Assembly: GCA_031386385.1 (NCBI GenBank)
Contig: JANNCG010000476.1
Span: forward strand, 1 to 44,472
Reading direction: 5' to 3'
DNA: 44,472 bases
Source: Myxococcales bacterium
GTDB lineage: Bacteria; Myxococcota_A; Polyangia; Polyangiales; Ga0077539
Shown here: one piece after another, positions 599 through 42,693 of the stretch
How the letters are laid out: the number at the start of each line of letters is the position of its first letter
How positions within the stretch are numbered: position 1 is the stretch's first letter
Notes under the pieces: generated by a model
What the model saw: only the letters and a program-made list of their open reading frames with translations
Databases searched by the model: none
Told to the model about the DNA's origin: nothing
Translations under genes and position numbers: made by a program

Positions 599-2146
599 TC
601 ACGACGCGAGCGAAGTCCCCTTGCGTCGCCGCACCGAGAGCACCTGCATCACGCTCATCGCCACCATGCACCCCAACGGAACCAATCCCATCGCCGGTGC
701 GATCACCATGCCCACATCACCAAGATAGCTTCGCCCCACGCTGCCCGCGCAGTAAAGCACCGGCAACAGCGAAGTGAGCCCGCTCGCGATCGCTATGTGC
801 TCACCCCGCGCCTTCAACCGCTGCGCGATGGGAGCTGCTACGATCGCTCCTGCTGCCATCACGCCCAACGCGTGGACGAGAAAACTCACGTGCGTACGAA
901 TCGCGCTCAGAGACCACCCTGGCCCCACCGCCGCGTAGCCCAAAAGCGCCCCGAGAGGCACTACCCAAGCGCCAAACCACTGCCGCCCTCGCCCGAGTTT
1001 TATCGCATAAATCGCTGCTAACACCCACAGGACAGCATACGCTAACGCCCTTTTGTTGCGTGCGTTTTCTTGCTGCACACGAGCGCGCTCCCAGCGAGCC
1101 CACATTTGCGCCGACCGCCGCACTGCAGCCGCTCTCTCAACAGTCACGTCGGCCGCACCGTGCTCGCGATCAAGCACTGCGGGATGCAATGTGTGCTGGG
1201 GCCACGGGACACCGAGCGCGTTTGCCACCGTCGCGGCCATCGCTCCGCTTGACTCAAGTGACCGAGAATAAATTGTGCTCTCAAGCTCGCTCTGCTCGGT
1301 TGCCAAGCGTGACCATCGCACGCGCCTAACGGAGGGCTCTGGACCGCCGTGACCGCCCGCAGGCAAGTGACCGTGGTCCGAACCAACATAGATTGAAAGT
1401 TGTGTGCCGTCCGTTGTGTGAGCCATCAGCCCGGCGTACAACTGCCTGACGCGCTCTACGCTCGCGCGCACCTCTCGGTGATAAGGCTCGCTCGCGGATC
1501 CATGGTCGTGCCCGACACCGTCCGTCCGCGTCCAGTGAACGATGAGCAAATTGGCTCCATTTTCGTACAGTCTCAGCACCTTTGCGACGTCGTCGGCGTC
1601 AGCTCCTCGCAGTCGCGCGTCGGTGGGTCGACCCGCCAGTTCATAAAACCACTGCACCGAGTCCAGCGCCCAGGCCACAGTCCCGCCCGAGGCACGCGCG
1701 CGATCAACAAAAGTGTCTTGGCGCGAGGGTCCTACGTACGCGTTGGTTCGAATAGCGCTGATGGCTTGATCCACGCCCGTGAGGACAACGTGGTAGCCGG
1801 GGCGAGAGAGGGAGGGGGTTCCGGTGTCGAAGATGCCCGACCATGCGATGGGAAAAGGGCGCTGCTCACCCATCGCTATGCGGTCCCATGCGTCTACGGT
1901 GACACCGTCAAGAAGGATAAAAACCACGCGTCGGGATGTCCTCGCAGGGGGTGTTTCTGCCGTGTTGATGGGCTGGTCAAGCCGCACCTCGGGATCGACA
2001 TCGTTGAGCGAATCGAGCAAAAATCTGCCGACCAATCCCCCAAATATCACTGCAAAAAGCCAAGCAAAAATGAGTTTTATGCGCGCACTTAACAAACGAT
2101 CCTGTAGCAAATCTTGGGTCACGTGTAGGGGTGTGCACAAGAGCAC
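599..2146 (-). CDS. Membrane-anchored alkaline phosphatase superfamily protein (type I phosphodiesterase / nucleotide pyrophosphatase-like)
   Basis: 515-aa ORF with an N-terminal TM helix. The core carries alkaline-phosphatase-superfamily metal and nucleophile motifs (VVFILLDGVTVD, TGTPSLSRPGYHVVLTG, TDGVGHDHG, GSDHGH). Several hydrophobic helices follow at the C-terminus. Confidence 0.65.
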   Translation of the reverse strand: MLLCTPLHVTQDLLQDRLLSARIKLIFAWLFAVIFGGLVGRFLLDSLNDVDPEVRLDQPINTAETPPARTSRRVVFILLDGVTVDAWDRIAMGEQRPFPIAWSGIFDTGTPSLSRPGYHVVLTGVDQAISAIRTNAYVGPSRQDTFVDRARASGGTVAWALDSVQWFYELAGRPTDARLRGADADDVAKVLRLYENGANLLIVHWTRTDGVGHDHGSASEPYHREVRASVERVRQLYAGLMAHTTDGTQLSIYVGSDHGHLPAGGHGGPEPSVRRVRWSRLATEQSELESTIYSRSLESSGAMAATVANALGVPWPQHTLHPAVLDREHGAADVTVERAAAVRRSAQMWARWERARVQQENARNKRALAYAVLWVLAAIYAIKLGRGRQWFGAWVVPLGALLGYAAVGPGWSLSAIRTHVSFLVHALGVMAAGAIVAAPIAQRLKARGEHIAIASGLTSLLPVLYCAGSVGRSYLGDVGMVIAPAMGLVPLGCMVAMSVMQVLSVRRRKGTSLAS

Positions 2147-2222: not shown

Positions 2223-5200
2223 ATGACCAAACTAGTCTATTCTCCGGCGCAACTTACTTACGCTATGAAGCTCGCAGACCGATACATCATTGACCGACAC
2301 GTTGGCGCCGGAGGCGGAGGCGGCGTGTACCTTGTGCGTGATCGGCTCGCAGACAACGCCCCCATGGTGCTCAAGCGCTTGCTCGCGCATGCGCAGGCAG
2401 GCGTCGCTCAGTGGCTGGTCAACGAGTTTCAAGTGTTGGCGCAGCTGGACCTCCCGGCCGTGGCCCGAGTGTATGATTTTGGACTCGCTGAGGCAGACTC
2501 AGAGGACCCAGGCGGTCCATTTTTTACCCGCGAATTCATTGACGGAACTCCCCTCGACCGCGCCCTCAAAGACACGCACCCCTCGGCGACTCACCTCGCA
2601 GAGATGTTCTCTTCCGCCGCCGAAGCCCTCCGCGCGATGCATCGTTTGGGCGTGGTGCACGGGGACCTGAAGCCGGCGAACATGGTGGTTCCGGCGGATA
2701 CGAAGCCGCGGGGGCCGGTGGTGTTGATCGACTTCGGTCTCGCGCATGGCGCCTTGGGTGCAGCGGACCACGTGCGCGGAGGGACCATCGCGTTTATGCC
2801 CCCCGAGCGTCGCGAGAAGCTCTACGCCGGTGAAGCCCTCGCACCCGATCCGCGCGCGGACCTTTACGCGCTAGCAGCATCGCTGTTGGCGTGTGTTGGG
2901 ATCGAGCAGCATGATGGGCCCGTGCCACCGATGGTGAGCGCAGATCCCTTGCTGATGGCCTTGGCGGCGATCGGACGTCAGGGAGCGTCGCCCGATCCTG
3001 ACCAGCGGTTTCGAACGTGTGATGACTTTCTCGCGGCGCTGCAGAGCGCCGTGCCACATAGCTACAGTGGGAGCTTGGTGCAGTCGCGAGTGATCTTGCG
3101 ACCCGAGGGCCGCGAGGCAGAGTTGGGGCAGCTGCTTGAGCACATAGCGAGGCGTTTAGTGCGCAAATCAGGCGGCGATTCGGTGCTGCTTGTCGAGGGC
3201 GAAGAGGGCTCTGGCAAGACCACCCTGCTTCGCGAGCTGACCTGGCGCGCACAACTTCGGGGTGTCCAAGTAGTGCACATTCAAGGCGACGCGGGTGAAG
3301 GGCCAGCCAATCGCATCGCGCTCGGAGCAGAGGTTCTCTCGGGGCAGACGCTCGCCGATCGTTCGGCGGATTCCATCGCTGCGGCGTATCGAAAAGCGCT
3401 GACACAAGCGCCAGTGTTGATCATCGCCGATGACATCGATCGCGCCGATCCGTCAGTGCATGAGCTGTTGCGATCCATCGCTTTTACCTTTGATACGCAA
3501 GAGCCCTTTGTCTTGCTGGCGGCGACCGCTGATCTGTCACGGACCTCGAAGCTCGCGGCGACCGCTACGGTCACGCTAGGGCCGCTTGATGAGACCGCCG
3601 TCGCCTCACTTTGTGCGCAAATTCTCGGACCCACAGAGCCGGGAGTGGTGACCGCCGTGCGTGAGCGGACAGGCTCATTGCCGCTCGCGGTCAGCGAGAT
3701 GCTTCGTGCCCTCGCAGACACGGGGGCTGTCACCGCCGACGATGTCGCCCGCGCAGAGATCCTGCCAAAAGCCCAAGAGCTCGCGCGCAGAAGAGCGCAG
3801 AGCATGCCGCTGTCCGTGCGCCTCGCGGTCGCAAAAGCCTATGCCCTTGGTGGAACCGCCACCGCCGCACAGCTGCTCACAATGGGTGTCGAGAGCGAGC
3901 ACATCACCAACGCGCGCGTCCTTGGTGCGCTAGAGATCAAAGCCAACTCAACGCTGTCGCCGTCTAACCCGACGTTGGCGCAGGCGGTCTTAGATTCGCT
4001 CGATGACGCACAGAAGCACGCGCTCTTTGGGGCCGCGGTGACCGTGCTTCGTCAGATGGTCCCTTTGCCGCAACATGCGCTCTTGGCACAGGCAGAATTG
4101 CGTGCAAATTTGCTTACCGAAGCTGTCGCTTCTACACGCATCGCGACCGTTGAGCTCCGCAAGGCCAACATGCCCTACGCGGCCGCGCAGCTGTTGCGAG
4201 CGGTGCGAGCGAGGGTTCCGCAGTTGCTGAGCGCAGCGGATGTTCTTGAAGAGGCAGAGCTCAGTCGGGCAGCGGGAGAGCTAGCTCCTGCAGCGGAGGC
4301 CGCAGAGATCGCGTCTAAGAGCGATGATCCCTCGGTGGCACAAAAAGCGCGACAGATTCTCTGCTATGCAATGGGCCACCTGGGCAAGATCGCCGAAGCG
4401 CGAGCCATTGGTGAGCTGGGGTATGAGCAAGCGAGCAGCGCCGATGAGCGCGCGGAGTTTGCACACCACCTCGCGCGAGCTGACATGTTGGCGGGCGAAT
4501 ATGCTGCTTGTAGTGCGCGATGCCAGAGCGCGCTAAGCGAACCAATGAGCGAGCCCAACCGCGCAAAGCTCTCGTCGCTCGGCGGGTTAGCAGCAGGATG
4601 GATTGGCGACAACCAACGCGCGCAGGTGTTGCTTGAGTCTGCCTTGTCGCTGTGGGAGCAGCAAAACAATCCCCTCGAAGAGTCGAGCACGTTGGCCTAT
4701 CTGGCGATTGGTCGCGACCGCGTGGGTGACAACGAAGGCGCTCGTGCGCTGTACGAGCGTGCCCTTGAGCGCGCCCGGATTGCAGCAAATACCGCACAGA
4801 TGGCCTCAGCGCGGTTAAACCTCGGTCGGGTACTTGAGCAAATGGGAGACCTCACCGGCTCGATGGAGCACCTCACGGCGGCCGAAAAACTGGCCCGTCG
4901 CGCAGGCTCGGCGCAGGTGTCGATGGGCGCGCAGCTCAATCTAGCAAACCATCTGCTCAAAGTGGGCTCGTATGAGCGCGCACTTCAATCACTTGAGAGT
5001 GCAAAAACACTCGCACATTCGTTAGGCCTTCGTGCCCTGTATGCGCACGCTCTACAAGGGATCGCCGTCGCACAGGCGCGCTTGCAGCGGTACGACTTGG
5101 CGCTGAGTACCGCAGAAAAAGCGCAAGAAGAGTTTGTTGGGATCCACGACGATGAGGCGCTAGCGGACGCATGGCTTGACACTGCCGAGACGCTGCTTGA

Positions 5201-7247
5201 TCGCGATAGCCCTGGAGACCGCGAGCTCGCGCAAGAGCGTTTGGACCAGGCAAAATCGACGGTCGATGAGCGCAACGATTTGGTGATGACCTCACGATGG
5301 AAGTGGCTCTGTGGACGGATCGCGCTCGCTAAGAACGACAACCGCTCGGCCAATCGAATGCTCACCGATGCCATTGATGGGGCCGAGAAGGCTGGGCAGT
5401 GGGAGCTTCGCGCCAACGCCCTCGCGACCCGGGCTTCACTTCACGCGAGCACCGGAGCAGAGCTTCACGCGAAGCGGGACCGAGAGCGCGCGGTGGAAGT
5501 GCTCGAGTCGGTCTCGTCGATTTTGCCGCCAGACCTGCGCAGCGCGTTTTGGAGCGTTCCGTCTCGCGTAGCGCTTCGGGCGCCGGAGCAACCACCATCA
5601 ATTCAGCTTCAAAAACACACAGAATCTCCATTGACGTTGTCCTCGCTCTCCGCTGGACTCACCTCGCACGGAGTCACCATCAGCGCGCAGGATCGGCGGT
5701 TGGTGCTGCTCATTGAGCTGTCGCGAAGAGTCAACGAAGAGCGCACGTTGGACGGAGTGCTCGACTTGACCGCGCGATCGGCTGCGGATTTGACACTGGC
5801 AGAGAGAGCAGTCGTGTTGCTCACAGAGCCAAACGGAGCGCTCACGTTGCGCGCGATGGTGGGTGCAGCGACGGATGGGACAGAGATGTTCTCGCGCTCG
5901 ATTGCTGAGAGTGCTTTGATAGATGGCGAGGTTTTGGCCTCGCATAACGCGCAGAGCGACCGACGGTTTTCGGATTTTCAGTCCGTGCACGACCGCGCAG
6001 TGGGGGCGGTGGCTGCTGTTCCGATTCGGGTGCGGGGGCGAACGTTGGGTGTGTTGTATATCGAGAATCGTCGGCGGCAGGCGGCGTGGTCTGCGATGGA
6101 CGTCACCCTGCTTCGTGCGTTTGCTGAGCAGGCGGGTGTAGCGGTTGAGCGCGCGCAGTTGATCTCGCAGCTTGAGCTTCGAACAAGCGAGCTTGAGCAG
6201 GCCAAAACCGAGGTGCAGGCGCTGTTGGCCGAGCGAACGGCTGAGCTTGAAGACACCCGACACTCCCTTGCACGCGCAGAAGAAGCGCTTCGTTCTCGGT
6301 TTGCACCAGAAGGAATCGTCGCGACCTCTGCGGTGATGCGCAAGCTGCTCACGGTGGTTGAGCGGGTGAAGGACACCGATGTTCCGGTCGTGATTGAGGG
6401 CGAGAGCGGGACGGGCAAAGAGCTCATCGCGCGTGCGCTGCATTTTTCGGGAGCTCGCGCCCGCGGACCGTTTGTCGTGACCAACTGTGGGGCGATCCCT
6501 GAGTCACTGATGGAGAGCGAGTTGTTCGGTCACTTGAAGGGCTCTTTCACCGGCGCAGACCGAGACCGTCGAGGGCTGATCGCGTCGGCGAACAAGGGGA
6601 CGCTCATGCTGGACGAGATCGGTGATATGCCACTTAAAATGCAGGTCGAACTATTGCGCGTGTTGCAGGACAAGCGCGTGCGACCCATTGGCTCTGATCG
6701 CGAAGAGAATGTCGATGTGCGAATCGTCGCGGCGAGCAACAAGTCGCTCAAACAGCTCGTCGCGGACGGAAGGTTTCGCGAAGATTTATACTATCGCATA
6801 TCAGTTGTGACGCTGCGCGTGCCTGCGCTGCGAGAGAGGGCAGAAGAAATTCCTGCACTCGCGAGTCACTTTATCGCAAAAATTGCAGAAGAACAGGGCC
6901 TCCCCCGCAAGAAGGTCTCGCGTGAAGCCCTCGCCCGCTTGCACCGCGCGCCTTGGCCTGGAAACATCCGCCAGCTGCGGCACGTTCTCGAGAGCGCATT
7001 TGTCCTGGGTGACGGGCCAACGATCGAAGCGGAGCATCTCAACCTCGACGAGAGCAAAGAGCAAGACGTCTTGATCGCTGGCAAAGCAGGCTCGCCAACG
7101 GCTCTGCGGCGCGCCGCTGAGCGCCAAAAAATCGTCGACGCACTTGAGCAAGTGAACTGGAACAAAGTCAAAGCAGCCACCGTTTTGGGCATGCCCCGCA
7201 GAACGCTCTACCGCCGACTCAAAGACTTTGGGCTTCTCGACGAGTAG
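2223..7247 (+). CDS. Multidomain regulator: Ser/Thr protein kinase, STAND-like P-loop NTPase, TPR-like helical region, GAF, sigma54-interaction AAA+ domain, Fis-type HTH (enhancer-binding protein)
   Basis: Uninterrupted 1674-aa ORF.
- Kinase: G-loop GAGGGGGVY, Lys in VLKRL, HGDLKPAN (nt 2658-2681), DFG, PPE.
- P-loop NTPase: GEEGSGKT (nt 3198-3221) with Walker B VLIIADDID.
- Long Ala/Leu-rich TPR-like repeats at aa ~700-1100.
- GAF-like segment at aa ~1160-1310 (VPIRVRGRTLGVLYIENRR), followed by a coiled coil.
- Sigma54 AAA+: GESGTGKE (nt 6399-6422), ESELFGHLKGSFTGA (GAFTGA-type loop, nt 6540-6557), GTLMLDEIGDM, WPGNIRQL.
- C-terminal HTH: NKVKAATVLGMPRRTLYRRLK. Confidence 0.85.
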   Translation: MTKLVYSPAQLTYAMKLADRYIIDRHVGAGGGGGVYLVRDRLADNAPMVLKRLLAHAQAGVAQWLVNEFQVLAQLDLPAVARVYDFGLAEADSEDPGGPFFTREFIDGTPLDRALKDTHPSATHLAEMFSSAAEALRAMHRLGVVHGDLKPANMVVPADTKPRGPVVLIDFGLAHGALGAADHVRGGTIAFMPPERREKLYAGEALAPDPRADLYALAASLLACVGIEQHDGPVPPMVSADPLLMALAAIGRQGASPDPDQRFRTCDDFLAALQSAVPHSYSGSLVQSRVILRPEGREAELGQLLEHIARRLVRKSGGDSVLLVEGEEGSGKTTLLRELTWRAQLRGVQVVHIQGDAGEGPANRIALGAEVLSGQTLADRSADSIAAAYRKALTQAPVLIIADDIDRADPSVHELLRSIAFTFDTQEPFVLLAATADLSRTSKLAATATVTLGPLDETAVASLCAQILGPTEPGVVTAVRERTGSLPLAVSEMLRALADTGAVTADDVARAEILPKAQELARRRAQSMPLSVRLAVAKAYALGGTATAAQLLTMGVESEHITNARVLGALEIKANSTLSPSNPTLAQAVLDSLDDAQKHALFGAAVTVLRQMVPLPQHALLAQAELRANLLTEAVASTRIATVELRKANMPYAAAQLLRAVRARVPQLLSAADVLEEAELSRAAGELAPAAEAAEIASKSDDPSVAQKARQILCYAMGHLGKIAEARAIGELGYEQASSADERAEFAHHLARADMLAGEYAACSARCQSALSEPMSEPNRAKLSSLGGLAAGWIGDNQRAQVLLESALSLWEQQNNPLEESSTLAYLAIGRDRVGDNEGARALYERALERARIAANTAQMASARLNLGRVLEQMGDLTGSMEHLTAAEKLARRAGSAQVSMGAQLNLANHLLKVGSYERALQSLESAKTLAHSLGLRALYAHALQGIAVAQARLQRYDLALSTAEKAQEEFVGIHDDEALADAWLDTAETLLDRDSPGDRELAQERLDQAKSTVDERNDLVMTSRWKWLCGRIALAKNDNRSANRMLTDAIDGAEKAGQWELRANALATRASLHASTGAELHAKRDRERAVEVLESVSSILPPDLRSAFWSVPSRVALRAPEQPPSIQLQKHTESPLTLSSLSAGLTSHGVTISAQDRRLVLLIELSRRVNEERTLDGVLDLTARSAADLTLAERAVVLLTEPNGALTLRAMVGAATDGTEMFSRSIAESALIDGEVLASHNAQSDRRFSDFQSVHDRAVGAVAAVPIRVRGRTLGVLYIENRRRQAAWSAMDVTLLRAFAEQAGVAVERAQLISQLELRTSELEQAKTEVQALLAERTAELEDTRHSLARAEEALRSRFAPEGIVATSAVMRKLLTVVERVKDTDVPVVIEGESGTGKELIARALHFSGARARGPFVVTNCGAIPESLMESELFGHLKGSFTGADRDRRGLIASANKGTLMLDEIGDMPLKMQVELLRVLQDKRVRPIGSDREENVDVRIVAASNKSLKQLVADGRFREDLYYRISVVTLRVPALRERAEEIPALASHFIAKIAEEQGLPRKKVSREALARLHRAPWPGNIRQLRHVLESAFVLGDGPTIEAEHLNLDESKEQDVLIAGKAGSPTALRRAAERQKIVDALEQVNWNKVKAATVLGMPRRTLYRRLKDFGLLDE

Positions 7248-7340
7248 CTTTCACACACGCTGCTGTCTCGCGGCGCCGTCGCAGATAGCATGGTTGTGCC
7301 GAACTGTGCCGAGCCGTTCATCCCGCTTGGATCGCTGTTC

Positions 7341-7356: not shown

Positions 7357-7390
7357 GCTTGGGTCTCATTTTGCCACATTCTGCGAACGT

Positions 7391-7406
7391 TGGTATGCTC
7401 CCTGCA
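7391..7406 (+). promoter_or_regulatory. Candidate sigma54 (-24/-12) promoter TGGTATGCTCCCTGCA
   Basis: GG at 7392-7393 and GC at 7404-7405 have the canonical spacing of TGGCACG-N4-TTGCW. The flanking T, A5, G7, T13 and A16 match; positions 4, 6 and 12 do not. It is intergenic, directly downstream of a sigma54 activator gene. The predicted transcription start (TSS, about 7417) falls just 3' of the ATG at 7414 and 6 nt before the in-frame GTG at 7423. Confidence 0.35.
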
Positions 7407-7413
7407 GTTGCCT

Positions 7414-7809
7414 ATGCCTACCGTGATCCGTCCCACACGCCTCCTTAGTCTCGTTTGTTGTCTCGCGATGAGCGCGTGCTTGTGGCGGCCACCGATTATT
7501 CCTCCTGGAGCACGGGGGGCAGAAACGGGCGTTGACCTATCCGCACCCGATGTTAGATCTGGCGCCCTCTTTGACGCTCAGATGCCAACGCCATCCGCGG
7601 ACAGCGGAGTCACTAACGGAGGCGAAGCGTTCGATTCGTGCGACGACTACTCTAACCGCATGGATGGTGCGACTCCACCTGACGGAATGCTGCAGCTGCG
7701 AGACGGTTACGTCGCACGTTGCCTCGACTCAGATGGTGATGCAGCGACCTCGGACGCTTCTACAGCACCGATCGACGGAGCTCTCGACGCCCGACCGGAT
7801 GCCAACTAG
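7414..7809 (+). CDS. Hypothetical Asp/Ala-rich lipoprotein
   Basis: The track ORF 7390..7809 starts at a TTG that is part of the TGG promoter motif. The internal ATG (aa 9, nt 7414) gives MPTVIRPTRLLSLVCCLAMSAC, a good lipoprotein-type signal ending in Cys. A GTG at 7423 is an alternative start. No recognisable domain. Confidence 0.45.
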   Translation: MPTVIRPTRLLSLVCCLAMSACLWRPPIIPPGARGAETGVDLSAPDVRSGALFDAQMPTPSADSGVTNGGEAFDSCDDYSNRMDGATPPDGMLQLRDGYVARCLDSDGDAATSDASTAPIDGALDARPDAN

Positions 7810-8556: not shown

Positions 8557-11088
8557 TTAAGGACACGCCCAAGCGAGGTTATAGCCACGCAAGACGGGAG
8601 TGCTCCCGTCCATCGCTGCACGCATACGCACGGTCACCCTGATGATTTGCGCTGGAGTAACACCGGCTCCACGAAGGGCCACGCCGACGTCGTAGGGGCT
8701 TCCGTTCGGTGGCAGTGTTGCGATGGCAACCTCAGTGGCTCCCGCGAGCGCCAGAACCGTAGCGGCCGTGCGCACCGAGACGGTCATGCTCGTCCCCATG
8801 GGGACATCTGCGTTGATCGTCAGGGTTGAGGGCCGAGGATTCGCACACGTTGTGTCGTTTATCTGCGAGTAGCTGCCCTCAGGAATGGACAACCGCCGGA
8901 CGGACCCTGTGAAATCCGAATACGAGTACACTTGGTTTGGTCCCGCGTAGGTCGTGTTCATCATGGTCATTGGATCAAACCGAGCCAACGGTGCGCCCGC
9001 ACCCCAGTGTGCCAAGTACAAGCGATTGAGCCGGTCAAAGCCTAGTCCAGCTGGACCACGCAGCCCAGGGGTGGTCACCCGCGTTACGTTGGCGGCAGGG
9101 ATCGCGCCAAGCATGTGATCGGCCGCTCGCCAGCGAACAACTCGCGAGTTATTCTCTGCAGGGTCTTCGCCGGCCATGTAGATAAATCCGTCCGGACCGG
9201 CGGTGATTCCACGACCCGCATATCCGTCGATCTGGGCCGTTGTGTCGACTCGTGACCAGGTTCCACCTGCGCCGCCGACGCCCATTCCGGGCGCATAACC
9301 GAGCGCGTCGCGGCAGGCCCAGCCCGCAAACCACAGCCGTCCGCCGGCATCTGCCGCGATCCCGTACCCGTTCACACACCCGCCTCGCATCGCCAGCGGA
9401 AACGGAATCGCCGCTGAAACCACAGGCATCGGTGTAGTTGTATCAATCGACGCTGTCGCACCAGAGTCGAGCGTCCCTATCCACAGGCGGCCATCTCCGG
9501 TGACTAACGCACCATAGGGTCGCACTGGAACCGCCACCGTCACGATGGTCTCGCCAGTCGTTGGATTGAGCTTATAAAACTCAGAGCGATTATAGCTTCC
9601 AGCCCATGGATAACCCGCCGGCGCGCGCACATCGCCGCGGTCGACCGTGAGCGCTCGAAGCACCGCGTCTACCGGTCCAACGCGCGAGGTCCAAATCACA
9701 CACTCGTCCACCGGTTGCCCGATCGCGTTAGAGTACGCCAGGACGTTCATTGGCCCCGTGCTTGTGTCAATCACACCGTTCATGTTGCGATCGATACAGT
9801 TAGCCCGTGAGCCCGCGAGCTTGGTGACAGTGCCTTGAAATGCAAATCCACGGTTGGCCACATAGACATCTCCCGCTCCGTCAATTGCCACGCGAGAGGC
9901 CATGTTGCAGCCGTTGGCATGACAGCACTGCCCGCGGCACTCTCCGGCCTCAAGTCCCACGCGATACTTGGCGATCTCACGCGGAGGATCCATCGCTGCG
10001 TCCCACTTTGAGACGGTACTTTCTGCAGTATTCACGATCCAGAAATAGTTGTCCGTGTTCGCCACGACCATCCCGTCGGGGATCACGCCACCGCGCATTG
10101 GATCCTCGCGCGAGTTGTTAAACGTCCCGTCGCCAAGGGGCAATCCGCCCATTCCGCCGACGCGCTGCACGCGACACTCGCAACCGTTTGCGTCAATCCC
10201 GTCACAGTTTTCAAACCCCATCGCGCAGCCCATCAAGCGGCAAGCCCCGTTCATGCAGGCACCCGCTCCGTTAGCAAAATCACAGCGGTTTCCGCATCGT
10301 CCGCAGTTGGCAATATCGTTGCCTGTGTTGGCCTCGCAGCCGTCCATTCGGTTGGCGTTGCAGTCGGCAAAGTTGGGGTTGCACGTCATAATGCAGCTCG
10401 CCGCACCGCAGCTCGCCACCGCGTTGGCGTACGGACCACAGGCGGTCCCGCACATCCCGCAGTTGGCTGGATCGGTGTCCGTCGAAGTGCAAGATCCCAT
10501 GCAATTTGTGTGACCCATCCGACACGACGGAACACACATCCCCGTCTCGCACACCAAGCCATCGCCGCATTGGTTGCCGCACATTCCACAGTTGGCTCGG
10601 TCGCTCTGCGTATTCACACACGCGTTTGCGCACACCGTCTGTCCCATCGCGCAGGTGAGCCCACAGCGTCCCATGGAGCACGCCTGACCGGCTGCGCACT
10701 GATTGCCACACATCCCGCAGTGCGCGTTATCGGTGCGCAAATCGCGGCACACCCCGTCGCATACGGTGAAGTTCTCAGGGCACACCAACCCACAGCGTCC
10801 CATGGAGCACGTCTGTCCATCGGGGCAGCGATTTCCGCATGTTCCGCAGTTGGTGGGGTCTGTTTGAGTGCTGGCGCAGCGGCCGTTGCACAGCTCGCCT
10901 CCGTCACAACTCGGAGGGGATGGGACATCGATGACAACACCGGTGTCGACAATGACTCCGGTATCTGTGACGGCGACATCGCGACCGACATCCGGAGCAT
11001 CACCCACAATCGGGGACGCGCATGCGAACAGTAGTGACGTCCACATGAGCGCATGCAGGACCCTACACATACGAAAAACTATATTCAT
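8557..11088 (-). CDS. Large exported protein: lipoprotein-type signal, Cys-rich NCGxCG repeat array, C-terminal beta-propeller-like region
   Basis: ORF 8557..11124. The internal ATG at 11088 gives MNIVFRMCRVLHALMWTSLLFAC. aa 72-317 hold five copies of ..(N/H)CG(T/M/R)CGxxC..G..C..G.C. The C-terminal ~500 aa carry recurrent strand-like motifs (DVYVANRG, RLWIGT, RLWFAGW, FIYMAGE) suggesting a propeller fold. Confidence 0.7.
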   Translation of the reverse strand: MNIVFRMCRVLHALMWTSLLFACASPIVGDAPDVGRDVAVTDTGVIVDTGVVIDVPSPPSCDGGELCNGRCASTQTDPTNCGTCGNRCPDGQTCSMGRCGLVCPENFTVCDGVCRDLRTDNAHCGMCGNQCAAGQACSMGRCGLTCAMGQTVCANACVNTQSDRANCGMCGNQCGDGLVCETGMCVPSCRMGHTNCMGSCTSTDTDPANCGMCGTACGPYANAVASCGAASCIMTCNPNFADCNANRMDGCEANTGNDIANCGRCGNRCDFANGAGACMNGACRLMGCAMGFENCDGIDANGCECRVQRVGGMGGLPLGDGTFNNSREDPMRGGVIPDGMVVANTDNYFWIVNTAESTVSKWDAAMDPPREIAKYRVGLEAGECRGQCCHANGCNMASRVAIDGAGDVYVANRGFAFQGTVTKLAGSRANCIDRNMNGVIDTSTGPMNVLAYSNAIGQPVDECVIWTSRVGPVDAVLRALTVDRGDVRAPAGYPWAGSYNRSEFYKLNPTTGETIVTVAVPVRPYGALVTGDGRLWIGTLDSGATASIDTTTPMPVVSAAIPFPLAMRGGCVNGYGIAADAGGRLWFAGWACRDALGYAPGMGVGGAGGTWSRVDTTAQIDGYAGRGITAGPDGFIYMAGEDPAENNSRVVRWRAADHMLGAIPAANVTRVTTPGLRGPAGLGFDRLNRLYLAHWGAGAPLARFDPMTMMNTTYAGPNQVYSYSDFTGSVRRLSIPEGSYSQINDTTCANPRPSTLTINADVPMGTSMTVSVRTAATVLALAGATEVAIATLPPNGSPYDVGVALRGAGVTPAQIIRVTVRMRAAMDGSTPVLRGYNLAWACP
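10174..10911 (-). repeat. Coding Cys-rich module array; a 23-nt exact DNA repeat marks a recent ~126-nt duplication
   Basis: cccacagcgtcccatggagcacg occurs twice, about 126 nt apart (near 10662 and 10789). It encodes the two C(S)MGRCGL(V/T)C units. Confidence 0.6.
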
Positions 11089-11147
11089 AGCCCCAAGGGT
11101 ATCAACGAACGATCCGTGCTGCAAATCACCGTCTGAATTGGCACATG

Positions 11148-25781: not shown

Positions 25782-27065
25782 TCAACTGCCACCATGCGTC
25801 GGCGTGCGCATAAAACGGATGTACTCCGCCAACTCTTTCTGCAACTCTGACGACGGGTCAATCCATTCAAGTCCCAACGCGACCCGACCGTTGTTCTCTT
25901 TTTGCCACCGAACAACTGCGTTCAACTGCACCATCTGCCCTGAGATCGGCAGCGAAAACTTGATCTGCACGATCTCGCCTGCTGGCCGCTTTGCCTTCGT
26001 GATCAACAATATCCCGCCTTCGGATACATCTTCGGACCGGCAATCTTGCGACTCTCCGTTGAGGATCAATCGAACAGGGGTTATGTACGCCGCTCTTGCG
26101 TTGCGTCGCTGTTCTGCCCCCGTCGGAGCTAGAACGGGAGACAGGGGTGGGGTCTCTTTTGGACCACCTAGTGATGGTATGGCGATGGGAGCGGCCGAAC
26201 CTTGAAGGGCAACGATTACCTCGCGGAGAGTCTGTGGCCGATCTTCTCGTTGATACGCCAGCATTTTTGCGACTAGTTTAGATAGCTCTGGATTAATATT
26301 ATGTACGAGCGTTATCAGCTCCGGTGCTACCGAGGCTAAATGCACGGACTTAAATCGCGCCATCGCGTCGTTTCCGAGTGGAAGTGCGCCAGTCAACGTC
26401 TCAAATAGTGATACACCAAACGCAAATATGTCAGAGCGTGAGTCAATCTGATCGTGGCGCGTGTGCACCTGCTCGGGCGCCATATACTCAACGGTGCCAA
26501 GCAGCTCGCCGGCGAATGTCAGTTTTCTTGTCGGTTCTTGCTGCTTCTTCGAGAGACTTGAGACTCCAAAATCAAGCAATTTTACCGCGTACTTTCCGGA
26601 CCCACTGTTGAGCGCGACAAAAATGTTTGCCGGCTTAATGTCACGGTGCACAAAGCTAATTTCGTGCAATCTTGCGAGCGTGGTCGCGAGGGGGATAAAG
26701 ATTCTCATGACCTCTTCGGGGCGCAGGCAACCGCGCGCAACGATGAGCCCGTCAAGTGGACGCCCAATCAGGTGTTCCATGACGATGTAGATGCCAAACT
26801 TCGCGCACTCACCAGCGCCCAAAATTTCAACGACGCCTTCGCCGCGTGCCATCTCCAAAAACTGAGCTTCTCTCAGAAGCCGCGCCCGAAACTCTTCGTG
26901 ATGCTTCTTCTCAGTCGGGAGCACCTTAATCACAACACGACGTTTCGTGATTGTGTGTTCGGCTTCGTAGATGTCGCTCATGCCTCCTCGCGCGAGAAGT
27001 CGTCGAATCGCATAGTACTGATCGACAAGCTCATTGTCGGTCCCACTGTCAGTCATTGCTTTCAT
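25782..27065 (-). CDS. Ser/Thr protein kinase with a C-terminal PilZ (c-di-GMP-binding) domain
   Basis: ORF 25782..27242, with the likely start at Met60 (27065) or Met63 (27056). Kinase: ARGGMSDIY, VVIKVL, HRDIKPANIFV, DFGVS, YMAPEQ. PilZ: RRNAR (RxxxR, nt 26108-26094) and DVSEGG (DxSxxG, nt 26030-26013), followed by a beta-barrel-like tail. Confidence 0.85.
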   Translation of the reverse strand: MKAMTDSGTDNELVDQYYAIRRLLARGGMSDIYEAEHTITKRRVVIKVLPTEKKHHEEFRARLLREAQFLEMARGEGVVEILGAGECAKFGIYIVMEHLIGRPLDGLIVARGCLRPEEVMRIFIPLATTLARLHEISFVHRDIKPANIFVALNSGSGKYAVKLLDFGVSSLSKKQQEPTRKLTFAGELLGTVEYMAPEQVHTRHDQIDSRSDIFAFGVSLFETLTGALPLGNDAMARFKSVHLASVAPELITLVHNINPELSKLVAKMLAYQREDRPQTLREVIVALQGSAAPIAIPSLGGPKETPPLSPVLAPTGAEQRRNARAAYITPVRLILNGESQDCRSEDVSEGGILLITKAKRPAGEIVQIKFSLPISGQMVQLNAVVRWQKENNGRVALGLEWIDPSSELQKELAEYIRFMRTPTHGGS

Positions 27066-27287
27066 CTCCGTATCGAGTTGGTTTCGGTCACTCTTCGCAT
27101 CCAGAGCGACGCGACGAACCCTATCAGAGCGAGATAGCGAGTGTCGAGCACGACAGCTTTGTCGGACCCTGGCGTCGCGGCCAACGCCAAATACCTCATT
27201 AACTTCGCCAAAGCGGCCAGTGCAAATTGTACACCGCGCCAACCATAAACTCCGATAGCATGGAGGGAGTTAGGTGGAGGCCATACC

Positions 27288-28691
27288 TTGAATCAATCTG
27301 CACGGCGGGTACTCGTCATTGACGATTCAAAGACGATTCATGCGGTATTGACCGCTTTTTTGTCTGAACGTGGCTGGGTCGTCGAGACATTCTTCGACGG
27401 CGAATCGGGAGCCTCGGCAGCTTTTCAGCAGCCGCCAGATGCAGTCATCTGTGATCAATCCATGGGTGGAATCTCGGGCATTCAACTGTGTCGGTTGCTC
27501 CGCGAAGATCCGCGGACTGCCACCATTCCAGTCGTCATTCTCACGGCAACGACCACCAAGCAGGGTCAATTTTGGGCGATGGAATCTGGCGCCAGCGGCT
27601 ATGTCGCCAAAACGGCAATCGCGACGCTCGTACCGATGATTGAGAGTTTGAAAGCAATCCCGAAACGCGTTCGGCGAACTTCTGCACCAGATACAGCACA
27701 TTTGAGCGTCTCGCAGCGACTGGGTCACCTGCTGGACTCTTCGCTCTTTGACGCGATGCTGAAGAATAAGTTTATGGCCATCGCGACGGCTTCTGACTCA
27801 ACGGCAACGCTCTTCGCAAGTGTGGCAGAGCTGCTTGCGAGTGTTCTTTCGGTTCAGTGGATCGCCCTGAGCGTGACGGGAGAACCAAAAGCGTTTTTGC
27901 TCTGCCGTCCGGGTGATCAGTCAGCAGAGCTTGAGGCACGCAGCGCATTACAGCTTGACACCAGGTCTGAACTCGAGACGACTCAAAGCGACAGGTGTGT
28001 GCTGGCTGGCCCTGAACGAACTAGAGCCGTGCGCCCGTTGGTATTTGCCGAGCAGGCAATTGGACGGCTCGTGCTTGAGCTCTCCCATGAGAATTTGTCC
28101 GCGCAGGATCATGTTGTCGTCGATATCGCAGAGCAGCAAATTCCTGTCGGATTGCAGCTTGTGAGGCTCATCGAACAAACCACAAAGCTTGCCATGACGG
28201 ATGCGCTCACAGGCATCAGCAACCGGCGATGTGGCGTCGACAACCTTGAGCGAGCGCTCTCAGCTTCATCAAGGCACGGGACTCCGCTTTGCATCGCGAT
28301 GGTTGATGTGGACCACTTTAAAAGTGTGAACGACCGCTTTGGGCATGACGGTGGCGATGTTGTCCTCAAAGCAGTCGCCTCCATTCTCTCTCGATCGATT
28401 CGGCGCTCGGATACTGTTGCTCGTTGGGGAGGTGAAGAATTCTTGCTGCTTTTTCCCCAAACCGCCAGACAAGGCACGCTTCTCGTCTGCGAACGTCTGC
28501 GACAGGTCATTGCCGGTCGGAGTCTCGATACCGCCACTGGGGCGAAGCTGACGGTGACTGCGTCAATTGGGGTCGCCGTCGCGGCCGAAAGCGACACGGC
28601 TGAATCGCTCTTACGTCGCGCTGACGATGCGCTCTATCAGGCGAAAAACTCCGGTCGAAATCGTGTCGTAGGACCGGTCGATGAGTCGTAG
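27288..28691 (+). CDS. Response-regulator receiver + GGDEF diguanylate cyclase
   Basis: REC: VLVIDDSKT, acceptor Asp in VICDQSM, VVILTA, YVAKT. Middle ~150 aa of unknown (GAF/PAS-like?) fold. GGDEF: GGEEF at nt 28428-28442, with an I-site RRSD five residues upstream. TTG start. Confidence 0.85.
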   Translation: MNQSARRVLVIDDSKTIHAVLTAFLSERGWVVETFFDGESGASAAFQQPPDAVICDQSMGGISGIQLCRLLREDPRTATIPVVILTATTTKQGQFWAMESGASGYVAKTAIATLVPMIESLKAIPKRVRRTSAPDTAHLSVSQRLGHLLDSSLFDAMLKNKFMAIATASDSTATLFASVAELLASVLSVQWIALSVTGEPKAFLLCRPGDQSAELEARSALQLDTRSELETTQSDRCVLAGPERTRAVRPLVFAEQAIGRLVLELSHENLSAQDHVVVDIAEQQIPVGLQLVRLIEQTTKLAMTDALTGISNRRCGVDNLERALSASSRHGTPLCIAMVDVDHFKSVNDRFGHDGGDVVLKAVASILSRSIRRSDTVARWGGEEFLLLFPQTARQGTLLVCERLRQVIAGRSLDTATGAKLTVTASIGVAVAAESDTAESLLRRADDALYQAKNSGRNRVVGPVDES

Positions 28692-28967
28692 TCGGCAAGA
28701 TTGATCCACCCGATGATCGCGCCATGCCACAGTCGGCGGCCGTTCAGTTCATGATTGCCGAATCTTCGAATCGTGTGATGCGGAGGCTGCTGAGTCGGAG
28801 AAATGACTGAAAAATGATTGGCCAAAGTGATCCTGAAAAATCGAAAAGCGCCGCATTGTATATCCCATCGAATTCCGTATACTCAACCAGCAACTTCACG
28901 AGTTCGGGACACTGTCAATTTAAACTGGACCATCCACCAGAACCATTAAACCAAATACCTTTTCATA

Positions 28968-30149
28968 TTGCGGGGAACTCTCATGACTCAACGATCATCG
29001 TCGGCAAAAATTTCAGGGTTGCATAGAGTCGCAGTATTGACGACGACTCCGACCAGCAGTTGGCCCAATGCAGCCGCGTTGACAGGCGAGTATGTGGTTC
29101 ACTTTGAGACACTTGAGCAACTGCAAGGACACTCAGATCCGCTGACTTGGCATCTGATCATCATGGACCATGCAATCGTCCGAGAGCGGTTCTCGATCGG
29201 TGAACTCACGAGTTTGCGCGAGTTGTTTGCCAATAGCACGCTGTTGATTCTTGAGGAAGTTGGCTCGCCCTCAGTCCCAAAAGCGGCCTCAAAACTTGGC
29301 TTCCGTACGACCATCCGTCCTACGGATGACTTAGCATTCGCGATTTTGATTCGCGACGCGCTGAGTGGCATCGGACAGAGTTTTGACGCGATCGCCGAAC
29401 CCACGTCGGTTTCTGGAGCAAGACCGACTCGCAATCCGCGACAGTCCGCGATGGATCTCGCGCTCACTATGGTGCGGATGCATTTTCAGCCCATCGTCCA
29501 GTGGAGCACACGGTCGGTGTTTGGATACGAAGCTCTCTGTCGCTGTGAGCACCCAAGTTTTCGAAATCCGCAAACGCTATTTGATGAGGCCGAAAGCCTC
29601 GATCGGTTGCAAGAACTGAGTCGGTGTGCTCGTTCGGCGACGGGCGCACTCATTGGATCGGCGCCGCTCGGCGTTAAATCATTGGTCAACATCCACGTTC
29701 GAGATCTTCTCGACGAGGAGTTGTTCAATCCCGATGGCCCCCTCGCAAAAAACCCCGCCCACGTCGTCATCGAAATTACTGAACGGGCATCGCTTCTTGA
29801 GATCCCCGACGCCCACGCGCGCATCGCTCGGCTGCGTTCGATGGGATATCGCATTGCGCTTGACGATTTAGGTGCTGGATATTCAGGACTCACGCTCGTC
29901 GGGTTGATTGAGCCTGAGATCGTGAAGATTGACATGTCGCTTGTTCGCGATATTCACCTGTCAAAAACCAGACAATTGGTCGTTCGCTCACTCTTGCGGC
30001 TCGCCGTCGACATCGGAGCCGAGACGATCTGCGAAGGCATTGAGACGCGCGAAGAGCGGGATGTCCTCATTGATCTGGGCTGCGATTTGTATCAGGGCTA
30101 TTTTTTCGGCAGACCTGCCAGCGGATTTACAGCTCCAAAGTTTGATTAG
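28968..30149 (+). CDS. EAL-domain c-di-GMP phosphodiesterase with a degenerate receiver-like N-terminal domain
   Basis: EAL at nt 29529-29537 (FGYEALCR), NIHVRDL, VIEITE, ALDDLGAGYSGL, KIDMSLVR, EGIETREE, QGYFFGRP. The catalytic set looks complete. Alternative start at Met6 (28983). Confidence 0.8.
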   Translation: MRGTLMTQRSSSAKISGLHRVAVLTTTPTSSWPNAAALTGEYVVHFETLEQLQGHSDPLTWHLIIMDHAIVRERFSIGELTSLRELFANSTLLILEEVGSPSVPKAASKLGFRTTIRPTDDLAFAILIRDALSGIGQSFDAIAEPTSVSGARPTRNPRQSAMDLALTMVRMHFQPIVQWSTRSVFGYEALCRCEHPSFRNPQTLFDEAESLDRLQELSRCARSATGALIGSAPLGVKSLVNIHVRDLLDEELFNPDGPLAKNPAHVVIEITERASLLEIPDAHARIARLRSMGYRIALDDLGAGYSGLTLVGLIEPEIVKIDMSLVRDIHLSKTRQLVVRSLLRLAVDIGAETICEGIETREERDVLIDLGCDLYQGYFFGRPASGFTAPKFD

Positions 30150-33503: not shown

Positions 33504-33619
33504 GTAGGTTTTCAACGCGCCTTTTAGCTCTTTTTTGACCCAATTGTGAGCGTGTTTATGGGTCGAAACAGCACCCAATGAGCTTTGTATTAGGCTATAC
33601 TCCTCGGTCAACACACCCT

Positions 33620-39565: not shown

Positions 39566-40165
39566 ATGCAAAGCTCAGGACTTTTACTCCGGCTTGTCGG
39601 GTGCGGCACGTCACTTTTGCTTCCAACGGTCTCTCAGGCGCAAACAGCACAGTGCGCAACAGAGCGCTCGTGGACCTCTCGGACCCTCGTTGAGCTCGTC
39701 GCTTCTCGCGCGGTGCAACGCGCTGGCCTCTCGGGCGTCGAACCAACCCGTGAGCTCGCGACTCGCGCCCGATGGTCTGCGTTGCTTCCGCGAGTGACAC
39801 TTCGGGTTGGACGGGGACTTAGCTACGGACTCAACACGACGACCAGCATGTCGACAACAGACCGCGTCAGCTCCGATGACTCCATGCACTTTGAAGTCGC
39901 TGCGACGTTTGATTTTGATCGTATGGTCTCAAGCTCAATCGAACTCGACGCGATTCGGGCAGAGACTCAGCGAACCGAGCGCCGTCGTGGACTTGAACGG
40001 GAGGTCCTTGAGACACTCACCCTATTGGAACGAGACAGAGCGCTTCGTGCACAGTGTTTACCCACTGGCTCAAACGGTGGCACAGCAACCCCAGAGATCA
40101 TTCACGCACGTCTCCGAGTTGAGTGGTGGACCAACGTTGAATGGGTCCGGCTTCAGAGCATGTAG
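39566..40165 (+). CDS. Hypothetical exported protein
   Basis: 199-aa ORF with a signal-like N-terminus (LLLRLVGCGTSLLLPTVSQAQT). No recognisable domain. Convergent with pilQ. Confidence 0.4.
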   Translation: MQSSGLLLRLVGCGTSLLLPTVSQAQTAQCATERSWTSRTLVELVASRAVQRAGLSGVEPTRELATRARWSALLPRVTLRVGRGLSYGLNTTTSMSTTDRVSSDDSMHFEVAATFDFDRMVSSSIELDAIRAETQRTERRRGLEREVLETLTLLERDRALRAQCLPTGSNGGTATPEIIHARLRVEWWTNVEWVRLQSM

Positions 40166-40330
40166 ACCTGTCGTGTGGCAGTGTCGGATGGCCGACAGGG
40201 GCTCGATTTTATTTAATAAATTCAATAGGTTCATGGACTTAGAGGGCTGTCGGACGGATCTAGTCAGGACGATGATTCTGTCTTCTAAGAGCAAGCGTGT
40301 TGGCTTGACTGGTCGGGGGGAGAAACGTCC

Positions 40331-40370
40331 GTGGCACAGTGCAAAGCTTGAGCGCTTCACAGTGTGCCAC
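40331..40370. terminator. Long imperfect hairpin in the convergent spacer; possible bidirectional terminator
   Basis: GTGGCACA (40331-40338) pairs with TGTGCCAC (40363-40370), and inner GTG/CAC and AAGC/GCTT pairs extend the stem. On the + strand it is followed by the T-rich ttagatttgtattcttgggttt. It begins ~34 nt past the pilQ stop on the - strand. Confidence 0.4.
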
Positions 40371-40403
40371 TTAGATTTGTATTCTTGGGTTTCGGGTTGT
40401 TGA

Positions 40404-42677: not shown

Positions 42678-42693
42678 AGCAGCGAATATGCCA
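42678..42693 (-). promoter_or_regulatory. Candidate sigma54 (-24/-12) promoter TGGCATATTCGCTGCT
   Basis: The minus strand reads cTTGGCATATTCGCTGCTc. GG at 42692-42691 and GC at 42680-42679 have canonical spacing. TGGCA and TGCT match the consensus TGGCACG-N4-TTGCW. The predicted TSS (about 42667) leaves only ~6 nt of leader before the ATG at 42661. Confidence 0.45.

Follow-up and report, generated by a model that had tools for sequence, protein, structure and literature searches.

We analysed a 44,472-nucleotide stretch of DNA, the whole of contig JANNCG010000476.1 in assembly GCA_031386385.1 of a Myxococcales bacterium (hereafter, the window). Our subject is a single long gene for a predicted sigma-54 activator, the regulator gene at positions 2223–7247, together with the DNA just 3′ of it. 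An earlier interpretation made from the letters only (the sequence-only reading) had proposed that these positions form one uninterrupted reading frame. It had also listed the modules that the frame would join: a Ser/Thr kinase, a STAND-like NTPase with a TPR sensor, a GAF domain and a complete sigma-54 activator module. Both proposals were confirmed. The open reading frame (ORF) runs for 1674 codons from ATG with no stop inside, and a Pfam profile search returned kinase, AAA_16/STAND NTPase, TPR, GAF, sigma-54 AAA+ and Fis-type helix-turn-helix (HTH) modules. The motifs that had been quoted all lie where they had been placed: HGDLKPAN at 146–153, DFG at 170–172, GEEGSGKT at 326–333, GESGTGKE at 1393–1400 and GSFTGA at 1440–1445. 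The Walker B motif of the STAND module, LIIADD, corresponds to residues 399–404. Residues are numbered throughout on the 1674-amino-acid (aa) ORF from ATG 2223. The gene has the following features:

2223–7247, plus strand: regulator ORF, 1674 codons from ATG, no internal stops
2235–2244, plus strand: conserved GTCTATTCTC block, −10-like, about 20 nt 5′ of ATG 2265; candidate promoter element of the regulator gene
2265–3062, plus strand: Hanks-type Ser/Thr kinase domain, non-RD (HGD), aa 15–280
3108–4052, plus strand: STAND-type NTPase module, aa ~296–610, with P-loop alpha/beta, helical and winged-helix-like domains; Walker A GEEGSGKT at nt 3198–3221, Walker B DD at residues 403–404
4053–5588, plus strand: TPR-like superhelix, aa ~611–1122, about 22 paired helices (three Pfam TPR_12 matches; DSSP of an AlphaFold2 model)
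5589–5717, plus strand: disordered Ser/Thr-rich linker, aa 1123–1165, model confidence (pLDDT) below 50
5718–6146, plus strand: GAF domain, aa ~1166–1308 (Pfam GAF at aa 1176–1308, 6e-15)
6093–6302, plus strand: single helix of about 70 residues from GAF to AAA+, aa 1291–1360; candidate signalling helix or coiled coil
6315–7049, plus strand: sigma-54-interaction AAA+ domain and lid, aa 1365–1609; Walker A GESGTGKE, L1 loop GSFTGA at nt 6540–6557, Walker B DE at 1464–1465, R1519/R1525, sensor II R1583
7110–7229, plus strand: Fis-type HTH, aa 1630–1669 (Pfam HTH_8, 1e-12)

A protein search with the window protein returned 205 relatives at E ≤ 1e-10. Twenty-eight of these (P0002–P0029) are orthologues with 48–83% identity and lengths of 1622–1736 aa, drawn from NCBI, JGI, ENA and Logan assemblies. 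The 29-sequence orthologue set used for residue counts takes in the window protein itself. We wondered whether the long ORF could have arisen in assembly, or through a sequencing error that joined two or more genes, as the sequence-only reading had itself cautioned. The contig is of metagenome type and the exact protein is recorded on one contig, which calls for general caution only. Yet 25 of the 28 orthologues align over 97–100% of the query, and 10 further loci gave the same gene; stops are absent and the domain order is kept. Because collinear, full-length orthologues from independent assemblies align end to end, a frameshift or chimera does not fit, and an artefact is so improbable that we set it aside.

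The start codon is a separate matter. Residues 1–14 show 5% identity among orthologues, versus 64% in the kinase domain, and orthologue N-termini read MKLADRY. Of eight loci examined, four (the window, L001, L002 and L015) keep the GTCTATTCTC DNA block; it precedes the MKLADRY start and falls inside the supposed first 14 codons. Thus, the true regulator start is probably ATG 2265, giving a protein of 1660 aa.

We next describe the C-terminal part, which carries the predicted transcriptional output. Pfam Sigma54_activat (PF00158) matches aa 1365–1531 at 4e-69, over profile positions 1–167 of 168, and AAA_lid_14 matches aa 1537–1609 at 8e-22. The PDB sequence matches of the AAA+ domain include ZraR, NtrC1, FleQ and PspF. 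Its Walker A motif, D1464 and R1519 are kept in 29/29 orthologues, and E1465, R1525 and the sensor II residue R1583 in 28/29. The L1 loop reads GAFTGA in 27 orthologues and GSFTGA in the remaining two, including the window protein. No region of the chain is better conserved than the HTH, with 78% identity among orthologues. Upstream of the AAA+ domain, the PDB sequence matches of the GAF domain are generic GAF domains only, and no ligand can be assigned from them. An AlphaFold2 model of aa 1165–1674 (pLDDT 88.6) shows one continuous helix between GAF and AAA+ (model residues 127–196), mostly at pLDDT ~90 or more; mean identity in this helix is 62% among orthologues. The linker in front of the GAF domain is rich in Ser and Thr (24% in the window protein, versus 11% for the whole chain) and ends in T1152-x-x-A-x-D-x-R-L, its only conserved feature. 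T1152 is present in 29/29 orthologues and is a candidate site of cis-phosphorylation, no more.

Residues 1157–1666 aligned end to end with a Nif-specific regulatory protein (9qq6_C, 4.4e-73, chain residues 19–512 of 528). Against the NifA model TIGR01817 they covered positions 4–526 of 534, with 334.1 bits, below the cut-off of 528.85. Judged by these alignments, the C-terminal ~520 aa are a complete NifA-like unit, NifA-like in architecture only. The order of GAF, linker, sigma-54 AAA+ and Fis-type HTH is the same as in NifA, NorR and FhlA. The window protein falls below every NCBIfam equivalog cut-off and is thus not NifA, NorR or FhlA; no curated NCBIfam model covers it. Unlike these proteins, it adds an N-terminal kinase-STAND-TPR block of 1150 aa and connects GAF to AAA+ through the single helix of ~70 residues. 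The proposal that the regulatory slot of an NtrC/NifA-type activator is here filled by a PknK-like kinase-STAND-TPR block plus a GAF domain is therefore borne out by the domain calls.

The DNA past the regulator gene holds three further features:

7295–7310, plus strand: tandem direct repeat TGTGCCGAACTGTGCC (TGTGCC-N4-TGTGCC), candidate enhancer (upstream activating sequence) for the regulator HTH
7391–7406, plus strand: sigma-54-type −24/−12 element TGGTATGCTCCCTGCA (GG-N10-GC), 80–96 bp past the repeat across loci
7414–7809, plus strand: gene for a small, acidic, low-complexity putative lipoprotein, 131 aa from ATG 7414; alternative start GTG 7423

We first compared the window with the locus of a 78%-identical orthologue (L001) and then added further loci. 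Against L001, two conserved blocks stood out in an otherwise diverged intergenic region past the regulator stop codon. The repeat, the GG-N10-GC element and the lipoprotein gene follow one another in this order, on the regulator strand, in 10 of 11 orthologous loci spanning 49–100% protein identity. Across these loci the repeat has the form TGTGCC-N4-TGTG(C/T)C. Within the window, no tandem TGTGCC pair other than that at 7295–7310 occurs. Eight copies of the repeat were counted on the two strands of the first 1.32 Mb of fetched loci, seven of them at this position; it is also unique in each of three loci fetched later. The eighth occurrence, TGTG(T/C)C-N4-TGTGCC at 9946 on the minus strand of L015, lies ~55 bp upstream of the regulator gene, a hint that the gene may regulate itself in that lineage. 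The other loci have no more than single half-sites upstream of this gene.

The promoter element is equally constant. All 10 module-bearing loci have a T before the GC (GG-N9-TGC) 80–96 bp after the repeat, whereas the background frequency of this pattern is 0.0017 per position, or ~0.03 per 17-nt distance window. The window and L001 share TGGTATGCTCCCTGCA; the element reads TGGCACGAAGTGTGCG in L002 and L015, TGGCACACTCTATGCT in L003, CGGCATGCTCCGTGCG in L007 and TGGCTCGCACCGTGCA in L008, and it is similar in L086–L088. When seven of the intergenic regions were aligned with MAFFT, the invariant columns proved to be those of the repeat and of GG..TGC only. From the −12 element to the start codon the distance is 14–31 nt in nine of the ten loci (derived by hand from the coordinates). 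The gene that follows encodes, in all 10 loci, a signal peptide, a lipobox, the motif C-LWRPP or C-VF..RP, two conserved cysteines and an acidic low-complexity body; the lipoprotein has no Pfam or NCBIfam match. An unrelated minus-strand gene lies between the regulator and lipoprotein genes in L002 and L015, and there the module stays with the lipoprotein gene. Thus, the conserved DNA is a promoter module of the lipoprotein gene and not a feature of the 3′ end of the regulator gene.

An enhancer ~90 bp upstream of a −24/−12 promoter is the textbook arrangement for a sigma-54 enhancer-binding protein (EBP), and this is the geometry of the module; a conserved HTH also goes with a conserved site. 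Its conservation beside the regulator gene speaks for sigma-54 dependence. Taken together, these comparisons suggest that the repeat is likely the enhancer, GG-N10-GC the promoter and the lipoprotein gene the direct target. The protein would accordingly be classed as an EBP by its AAA+ core, its GAFTGA-type loop and its C-terminal HTH with a conserved upstream site, to which we infer that it binds. Tandem repeats have a myxobacterial parallel: PMC9765219 describes tandem, imperfect direct repeats upstream of sigma-54 promoters as bound by the EBP Nla28 of M. xanthus. Nla28 differs in being a response regulator with a receiver domain; its regulon is large, versus one site per locus here, and its half-site is CT(C/G)CG(C/G)AG. 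A lipoprotein target also fits the view, put forward by Francke et al. (PMC3162934), that sigma-54 controls mainly the cell exterior.

The N-terminal domain is a Hanks-type Ser/Thr kinase. Pfam Pkinase matches aa 22–221 (E 4e-18, 66 bits versus a cut-off of 31.7), and the PDB sequence matches are PknB (1.7e-17), PknG, PknA and StkP. The window kinase has a GAGGGGGV glycine-rich loop, K51, E68, D148, K150, N153, DFG at 170–172, T188 and PPE at 193–195. Throughout the 29 orthologues K51, E68, H146-G-D148, K150, N153, D170-F-G, T188 and P194-E195 are invariant. All 25 orthologues that align over the glycine-rich loop have it unchanged, the other four sequences starting past it. Among 108 kinase domains of the wider family, 91 have the complete K/D/N/D set. 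With the catalytic residues of a Hanks-type kinase in place, the domain is predicted to be catalytically competent.

The catalytic loop reads HGD in 29/29 orthologues and HGD dominates in the wider family; the kinase is thus non-RD throughout the orthologue set. In the activation loop, DFGLAHGALGAADHVRGGTIAFMPPE, the P+1 Thr is the sole Ser/Thr. Because the loop is non-RD and offers no Ser or Thr but this one, switching of the kinase through activation-loop phosphorylation is unlikely. Non-RD kinases without an activation-loop phospho-acceptor are often constitutively competent.

The region that follows the kinase was assigned by profile and by fold. Pfam AAA_16 and AAA_22 match aa 296–438 at ~1e-9 to 4e-10, both over their curated cut-offs (AAA_16, 39.7 bits versus 32.6), and the NACHT profile narrowly misses its own (26.2 versus 26.7). 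Among the 60 best of 300 PDB sequence matches, none fell in the STAND-TPR region. An AlphaFold2 model of aa 285–1165, built on a 43-sequence alignment, has a mean pLDDT of 89.7 and a pTM of 0.74. It consists of a five-stranded alpha/beta NTPase, a helical and winged-helix-like arm, and the paired helices of the superhelix. The superhelix spans ~500 aa in the model, more than the ~400 aa of TPR-like helices that the sequence-only reading had estimated. Searched against the PDB with Foldseek, the model best matched 6mfv_A, annotated as 'STAND protein with a tetratricopeptide repeat' (1.8e-11). Avs3 (8dgc, 6.6e-10) came next, then TPR arrays (LGN/Pins, OGT) and Cdc6. The STAND-TPR label is thus supported by the predicted fold, since STAND-TPR 6mfv_A and Avs3 rank highest. 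We also considered an anti-phage, Avs-like STAND function and rejected it: the likeness to Avs3 goes no further than the NTPase/TPR fold, and the surrounding chromosomal region is of housekeeping type.

The P-loop of this module varies in an unexpected way. The Walker A lysine, K332, is an arginine (GxxGSGR[S/T]) in 25/29 orthologues and in most other myxobacterial members. GEEGSGK(T/S) is kept by the window protein and its three nearest relatives, and GK(S/T) by the Bacteroidota, Ignavibacteria and Zixibacteria members. All orthologues have the Walker B DD. Nucleotide-switch oligomerisation, which had been suggested for the window protein, is therefore doubtful as a general mechanism of the family, at least as a hydrolysing switch, although the window protein itself keeps the lysine. 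Why the P-loop lysine gave way to arginine in most myxobacterial members, while the remaining STAND module is conserved, is a puzzle.

These residues bear on whether the kinase, the STAND module or both could be non-catalytic scaffolds, that is, surfaces for dimerisation or oligomerisation, or docking sites. The Lys-to-Arg replacement points that way, as do the 17 of 108 family kinases that miss one K/D/N/D residue and the Pfam kinase match itself, which spans profile positions 2–187 of 263 only. However, the PDB kinases align through residue ~275, and the invariance of K51-E68, HGD-K-N and DFG across the 29 orthologues would be hard to explain without catalysis. The window protein, moreover, has a canonical GxxGxGKT and a Walker B DD. 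A scaffold role is plausible for the STAND module and unlikely for the kinase, and as an account of the N-terminal block we find it highly improbable.

To place the protein, we examined the spread of its architecture. At 90% identity, over 100 clusters combine Pkinase, AAA_16/AAA_22, TPR, GAF, Sigma54_activat and HTH_8. A word-indexed search with the STAND-TPR region alone gave eight matches and missed known orthologues, and an exhaustive search of 1.84 billion representatives was used instead; it returned 218 clusters at E ≤ 1e-10. Among the best 150 of these 218 matches (50%-identity representatives), 100 reach 1400 aa or more and 69 match strict patterns for the kinase catalytic loop as well as the EBP motifs; others of the 150 have small motif variants such as GAFSGA. 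A genome scan found the complete fusion in many Myxococcota, among them the cultured Polyangium jinanense SDU13 and Pendulispora albinea, and in metagenome-assembled genomes (MAGs) labelled Ignavibacteria, Bacteroidota, Zixibacteria and Isosphaeraceae. The source names of relatives add Planctomycetota and Thermoanaerobaculia (Acidobacteriota). Most family members are Myxococcota, and the closest relatives of the window protein all come from uncultured Myxococcota/Polyangiales MAGs. The names that the source databases give to family members are unspecific: 'sigma 54-interacting transcriptional regulator', 'PknK', or 'transcriptional regulator with GAF, ATPase, and Fis domain/predicted Ser/Thr protein kinase'.

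The combination had been described as unusually elaborate, a view that does not survive these counts: it is the standard architecture of a large family present in several phyla. By its domain matches, the kinase-STAND-TPR-GAF-sigma-54 design is common in myxobacteria, not rare, and the protein is a member of both the EBP superfamily and an architecture family that is unnamed yet visible in databases.

A few relatives depart from this plan. In L022, from a Sericytochromatia MAG, the kinase-STAND cassette is joined to a GGDEF motif and the EBP motifs are absent. P0088 has Pfam GGDEF (PF00990) beside Pkinase and Sigma54_activat, and P0266 has a GGDEF motif with no kinase motif detected. Because these proteins carry GGDEF in place of or beside the sigma-54 module, the kinase-STAND input cassette seems to have been reused with different outputs, here diguanylate cyclase.

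Taken together, these results lead us to propose that the protein is, probably, a multi-input EBP. Its HTH would bind the tandem TGTGCC repeat just downstream of the regulator gene. The AAA+ ring would spend ATP to open a sigma-54 promoter ~90 bp beyond the repeat, and the opened promoter would drive the small acidic lipoprotein gene in vivo. The N-terminal ~1150 residues, a PknK-like cassette, would serve in cis as regulatory input. Within this cassette, the TPR/STAND part would sense a partner or ligand, the presumed signal, and set the oligomeric state; the kinase would add a phosphorylation step, in cis (at T1152 or in the linker) or on substrates in trans. The GAF domain and the 70-residue helix would keep the AAA+ domain inactive until signalled and then relay the signal to it, probably by release of an inhibited dimer. 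Phosphorylation, nucleotide and ligand inputs could in this way converge on open-complex formation. Inhibition by the GAF domain and helix is proposed by analogy. NtrC1 and DctD form inactive dimers stabilised by coiled coils, and in NorR the GAF domain represses the AAA+ domain intramolecularly, according to the abstract of PMC2941729. Of this picture, the computation shows the architecture, the conserved catalytic residues, the folds and the cis-module with its adjacent gene. We are more confident that the protein is a functional EBP acting through this enhancer on this target than we are of the roles given to the kinase and STAND modules.

Several observations weigh against this proposal. 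One orthologous locus, L005, is without the cis-module. Fis-type HTH dimers more usually use inverted than tandem direct repeats. A scan of the whole window with TGGCAC-N5-TTGC, at most two mismatches allowed, gave 56 matches versus 59.6 expected, no enrichment; the promoter came to light only when orthologous loci were compared. The −12 element lies near the start codon, so that the leader from a sigma-54 start would be 2–19 nt in most loci. In the window, transcription from about 7417 would make GTG 7423 a likelier start codon of the lipoprotein gene than ATG 7414; L001 has a GTG at the same position, and the lipoprotein gene begins with GTG in five of eight other loci. We found no rpoN among the ORFs of this 44-kb contig. 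Myxococcota carry rpoN, and PMC3696898 mentions that of Sorangium So0157-2. On the input side, a classical ATP-driven STAND switch may not operate, given the arginine in most orthologues.

The promoter bases themselves allow another interpretation. In the window and L001 they also read as a good sigma-70 promoter, TTGCCA-17-TATGCT (7371–7399) with an upstream TG. In the window lineage the lipoprotein gene could then be transcribed by sigma-70 polymerase, and the regulator would act at the TGTGCC repeat as a sigma-54-independent repressor or classical activator, in the manner of EBP-like regulators that left sigma-54 (TyrR, HupR and VpsR). In the window the −24 hexamer is TGGTAT, not TGGCAC, and the L1 loop is GSFTGA, departures from consensus that would agree with such a change, as would the very short leader. 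Nevertheless, the sigma-70 reading is absent from the other lineages, and the window keeps GG and GC at the −24/−12 spacing with the spacer GCTCC, shared exactly with L007, where no sigma-70 promoter can be read. L001 pairs the same promoter sequence with a canonical GAFTGA. GSFTGA recurs naturally in 13 family members, the ATPase motifs of which were not individually inspected, and the ATPase residues of the window protein are all intact. Because the sigma-70 reading is confined to the window and L001 while GG/GC and the spacer are retained, we favour the sigma-54 reading for the window lineage, with dual or replaced promoters as possible variants. Loss of sigma-54 control in this lineage appears improbable.

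A further alternative concerns the kinase. The protein might be mainly a PknK-like kinase that phosphorylates other proteins in trans, its EBP part being a secondary or autoregulatory output of a two-output hub. The kinase is conserved like the EBP core (64% versus 72%), its catalytic residues are invariant, and the constitutive competence common among non-RD kinases would suit such a role. The cassette is joined to other outputs in L022, P0266 and P0088. PknK of Mycobacterium tuberculosis (Rv3080c), a soluble Hanks kinase with a STAND-family region, acts on several transcription factors in trans, phosphorylating VirS, PrrA and MtrA (PMC9045387). On the other hand, the EBP fusion is retained across several phyla. 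Because a dedicated enhancer/promoter module is kept in 10/11 loci, the transcriptional output must be under strong selection. A hub would be compatible with the multi-input EBP that we propose; with the EBP part demoted to a secondary output, we find it possible but doubtful.

The multi-input EBP could also work by an NLR-like logic. The STAND/TPR module and a constitutively competent non-RD kinase would gate assembly of the sigma-54 ring, cis-phosphorylation of T1152 would license it, and a dedicated regulon of one gene, the adjacent acidic lipoprotein gene, would read it out. We regard this specific scheme as speculative and rather unlikely. If true, it would add a regulatory logic new to sigma-54 activators and give the whole family its first defined target.

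How does the protein compare with known systems? PknK appears to be the nearest characterised logic, by analogy. A relationship by sequence is suggested by the name 'PknK' that JGI gives to several relatives and by Pfam TPR_MalT matches in relatives. The two differ in that PknK acts in trans and has no DNA-binding or sigma-54 module, whereas the window protein has the transcription factor in the same chain and a non-RD (HGD) kinase. In MalT, a nucleotide-binding oligomerisation domain (NOD) and a TPR/SUPR arm couple ligand and ATP binding to oligomerisation and activation (Danot et al. 2009, as cited in PMC9045387). MalT/LAL regulators and AfsR have the order P-loop NOD then TPR/SUPR sensor arm, and the 6mfv and Avs3 fold matches back the same module in the window protein. 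In contrast to these regulators, its output is a sigma-54 AAA+ domain with a Fis-type HTH, not LuxR or SARP acting on sigma-70 polymerase. Pfam found no LuxR/GerE domain in the window protein, the C-terminus being Sigma54_activat and HTH_8. Also unlike the STAND activators, the chain holds two different ATPase modules, and the Walker A Lys is Arg in most orthologues.

M. xanthus offers another comparison. FHA-domain EBPs of this species, on which Jelsbak et al. reportedly wrote in 2005, are said to link Ser/Thr-kinase signalling to sigma-54 activators. In such systems kinase and EBP are separate proteins, and the EBP recognises phospho-threonine with its FHA domain. In the window protein, by contrast, the kinase is fused to the EBP, and Pfam finds no FHA domain. 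Kinase-EBP fusions were reportedly noted by Schneiker in 2007, for the Sorangium genome, and in myxobacterial kinome papers. Our literature searches found no description or functional characterisation of a kinase-EBP fusion or of a STAND-EBP link, in agreement with the earlier statement that no kinase-sigma-54-activator fusion is known to have been characterised functionally.

EBPs are the obligatory switches of sigma-54 transcription and are known to be controlled by receiver domains, by single sensor domains or by partner proteins. In the family described here, a eukaryote-type kinase takes that position together with a STAND/TPR module. The family is numerous (at least 100 distinct clusters) and mostly found in Myxococcota, whose biology leans heavily on Ser/Thr kinases and sigma-54. 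It now has a testable candidate circuit, made up of a 16-bp tandem repeat, a −24/−12 element and an adjacent target gene. A simple reporter would thus suffice to score kinase-dead, Walker and GAF mutants, and carriers of the fusion are in culture (P. jinanense and P. albinea). The draw of the system lies in the size of the family, its intact non-RD kinase, the K-to-R puzzle of the P-loop and, above all, the candidate enhancer, promoter and target.

Other sites in the window resemble parts of the module. TGGTATTCACCCTGCA at 34504–34519, plus strand, is identical to the lipoprotein promoter element at 13/16 positions; it lies inside ORF 33578–34861, ~340 bp upstream of a Ser/Thr kinase gene at 34846–37173. 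Near it there is no TGTGCC tandem repeat, and two single minus-strand half-sites lie at 34262 and 34418. A sigma-54-like sequence, TGGCATATTCGCTGCT, at 42678–42693 on the minus strand is intergenic, upstream of a small signal-peptide ORF (beginning MKISRMLVLCLFIALPCCA) and then of a secretin gene (40404–42002, minus strand); it might mark a sigma-54-dependent secretin or pilus operon. The inverted pair GGCACA...TGTGCC at 40333–40368 lies just past the 3′ end of the secretin gene (40404), within ORF 39807–40403. This palindrome of the enhancer hexamer could be a terminator hairpin or an unrelated site.

Finally, we surveyed the surroundings of the regulator gene. Its divergent upstream neighbour is the following:

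599–2146, minus strand: AlkP-type phosphodiesterase homologue

This neighbour is syntenic in three lineages (the window, L001 and L086), not beyond. The contig looks like part of a signalling-rich Myxococcota chromosome: it also holds three further Ser/Thr kinases, one of them fused to PilZ, pilMNO, a secretin, response regulator-GGDEF and EAL genes, and LysM-M15 and VanY peptidases. A cyclic-di-GMP-related cluster occupies 25782–30149, with the kinase-PilZ gene at 25782–27242 (minus strand), a receiver-GGDEF gene at 27288–28691 (plus strand) and an EAL gene at 28968–30149 (plus strand). At 8557–11124 on the minus strand lies the gene of an 855-aa protein with Stig1-like cysteine-rich repeats, which matches the NCBIfam model 'MXAN_6577-like cysteine-rich protein' at 121 bits versus a cut-off of 100. 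A DUF6923-type relative of this protein is syntenic in L001.

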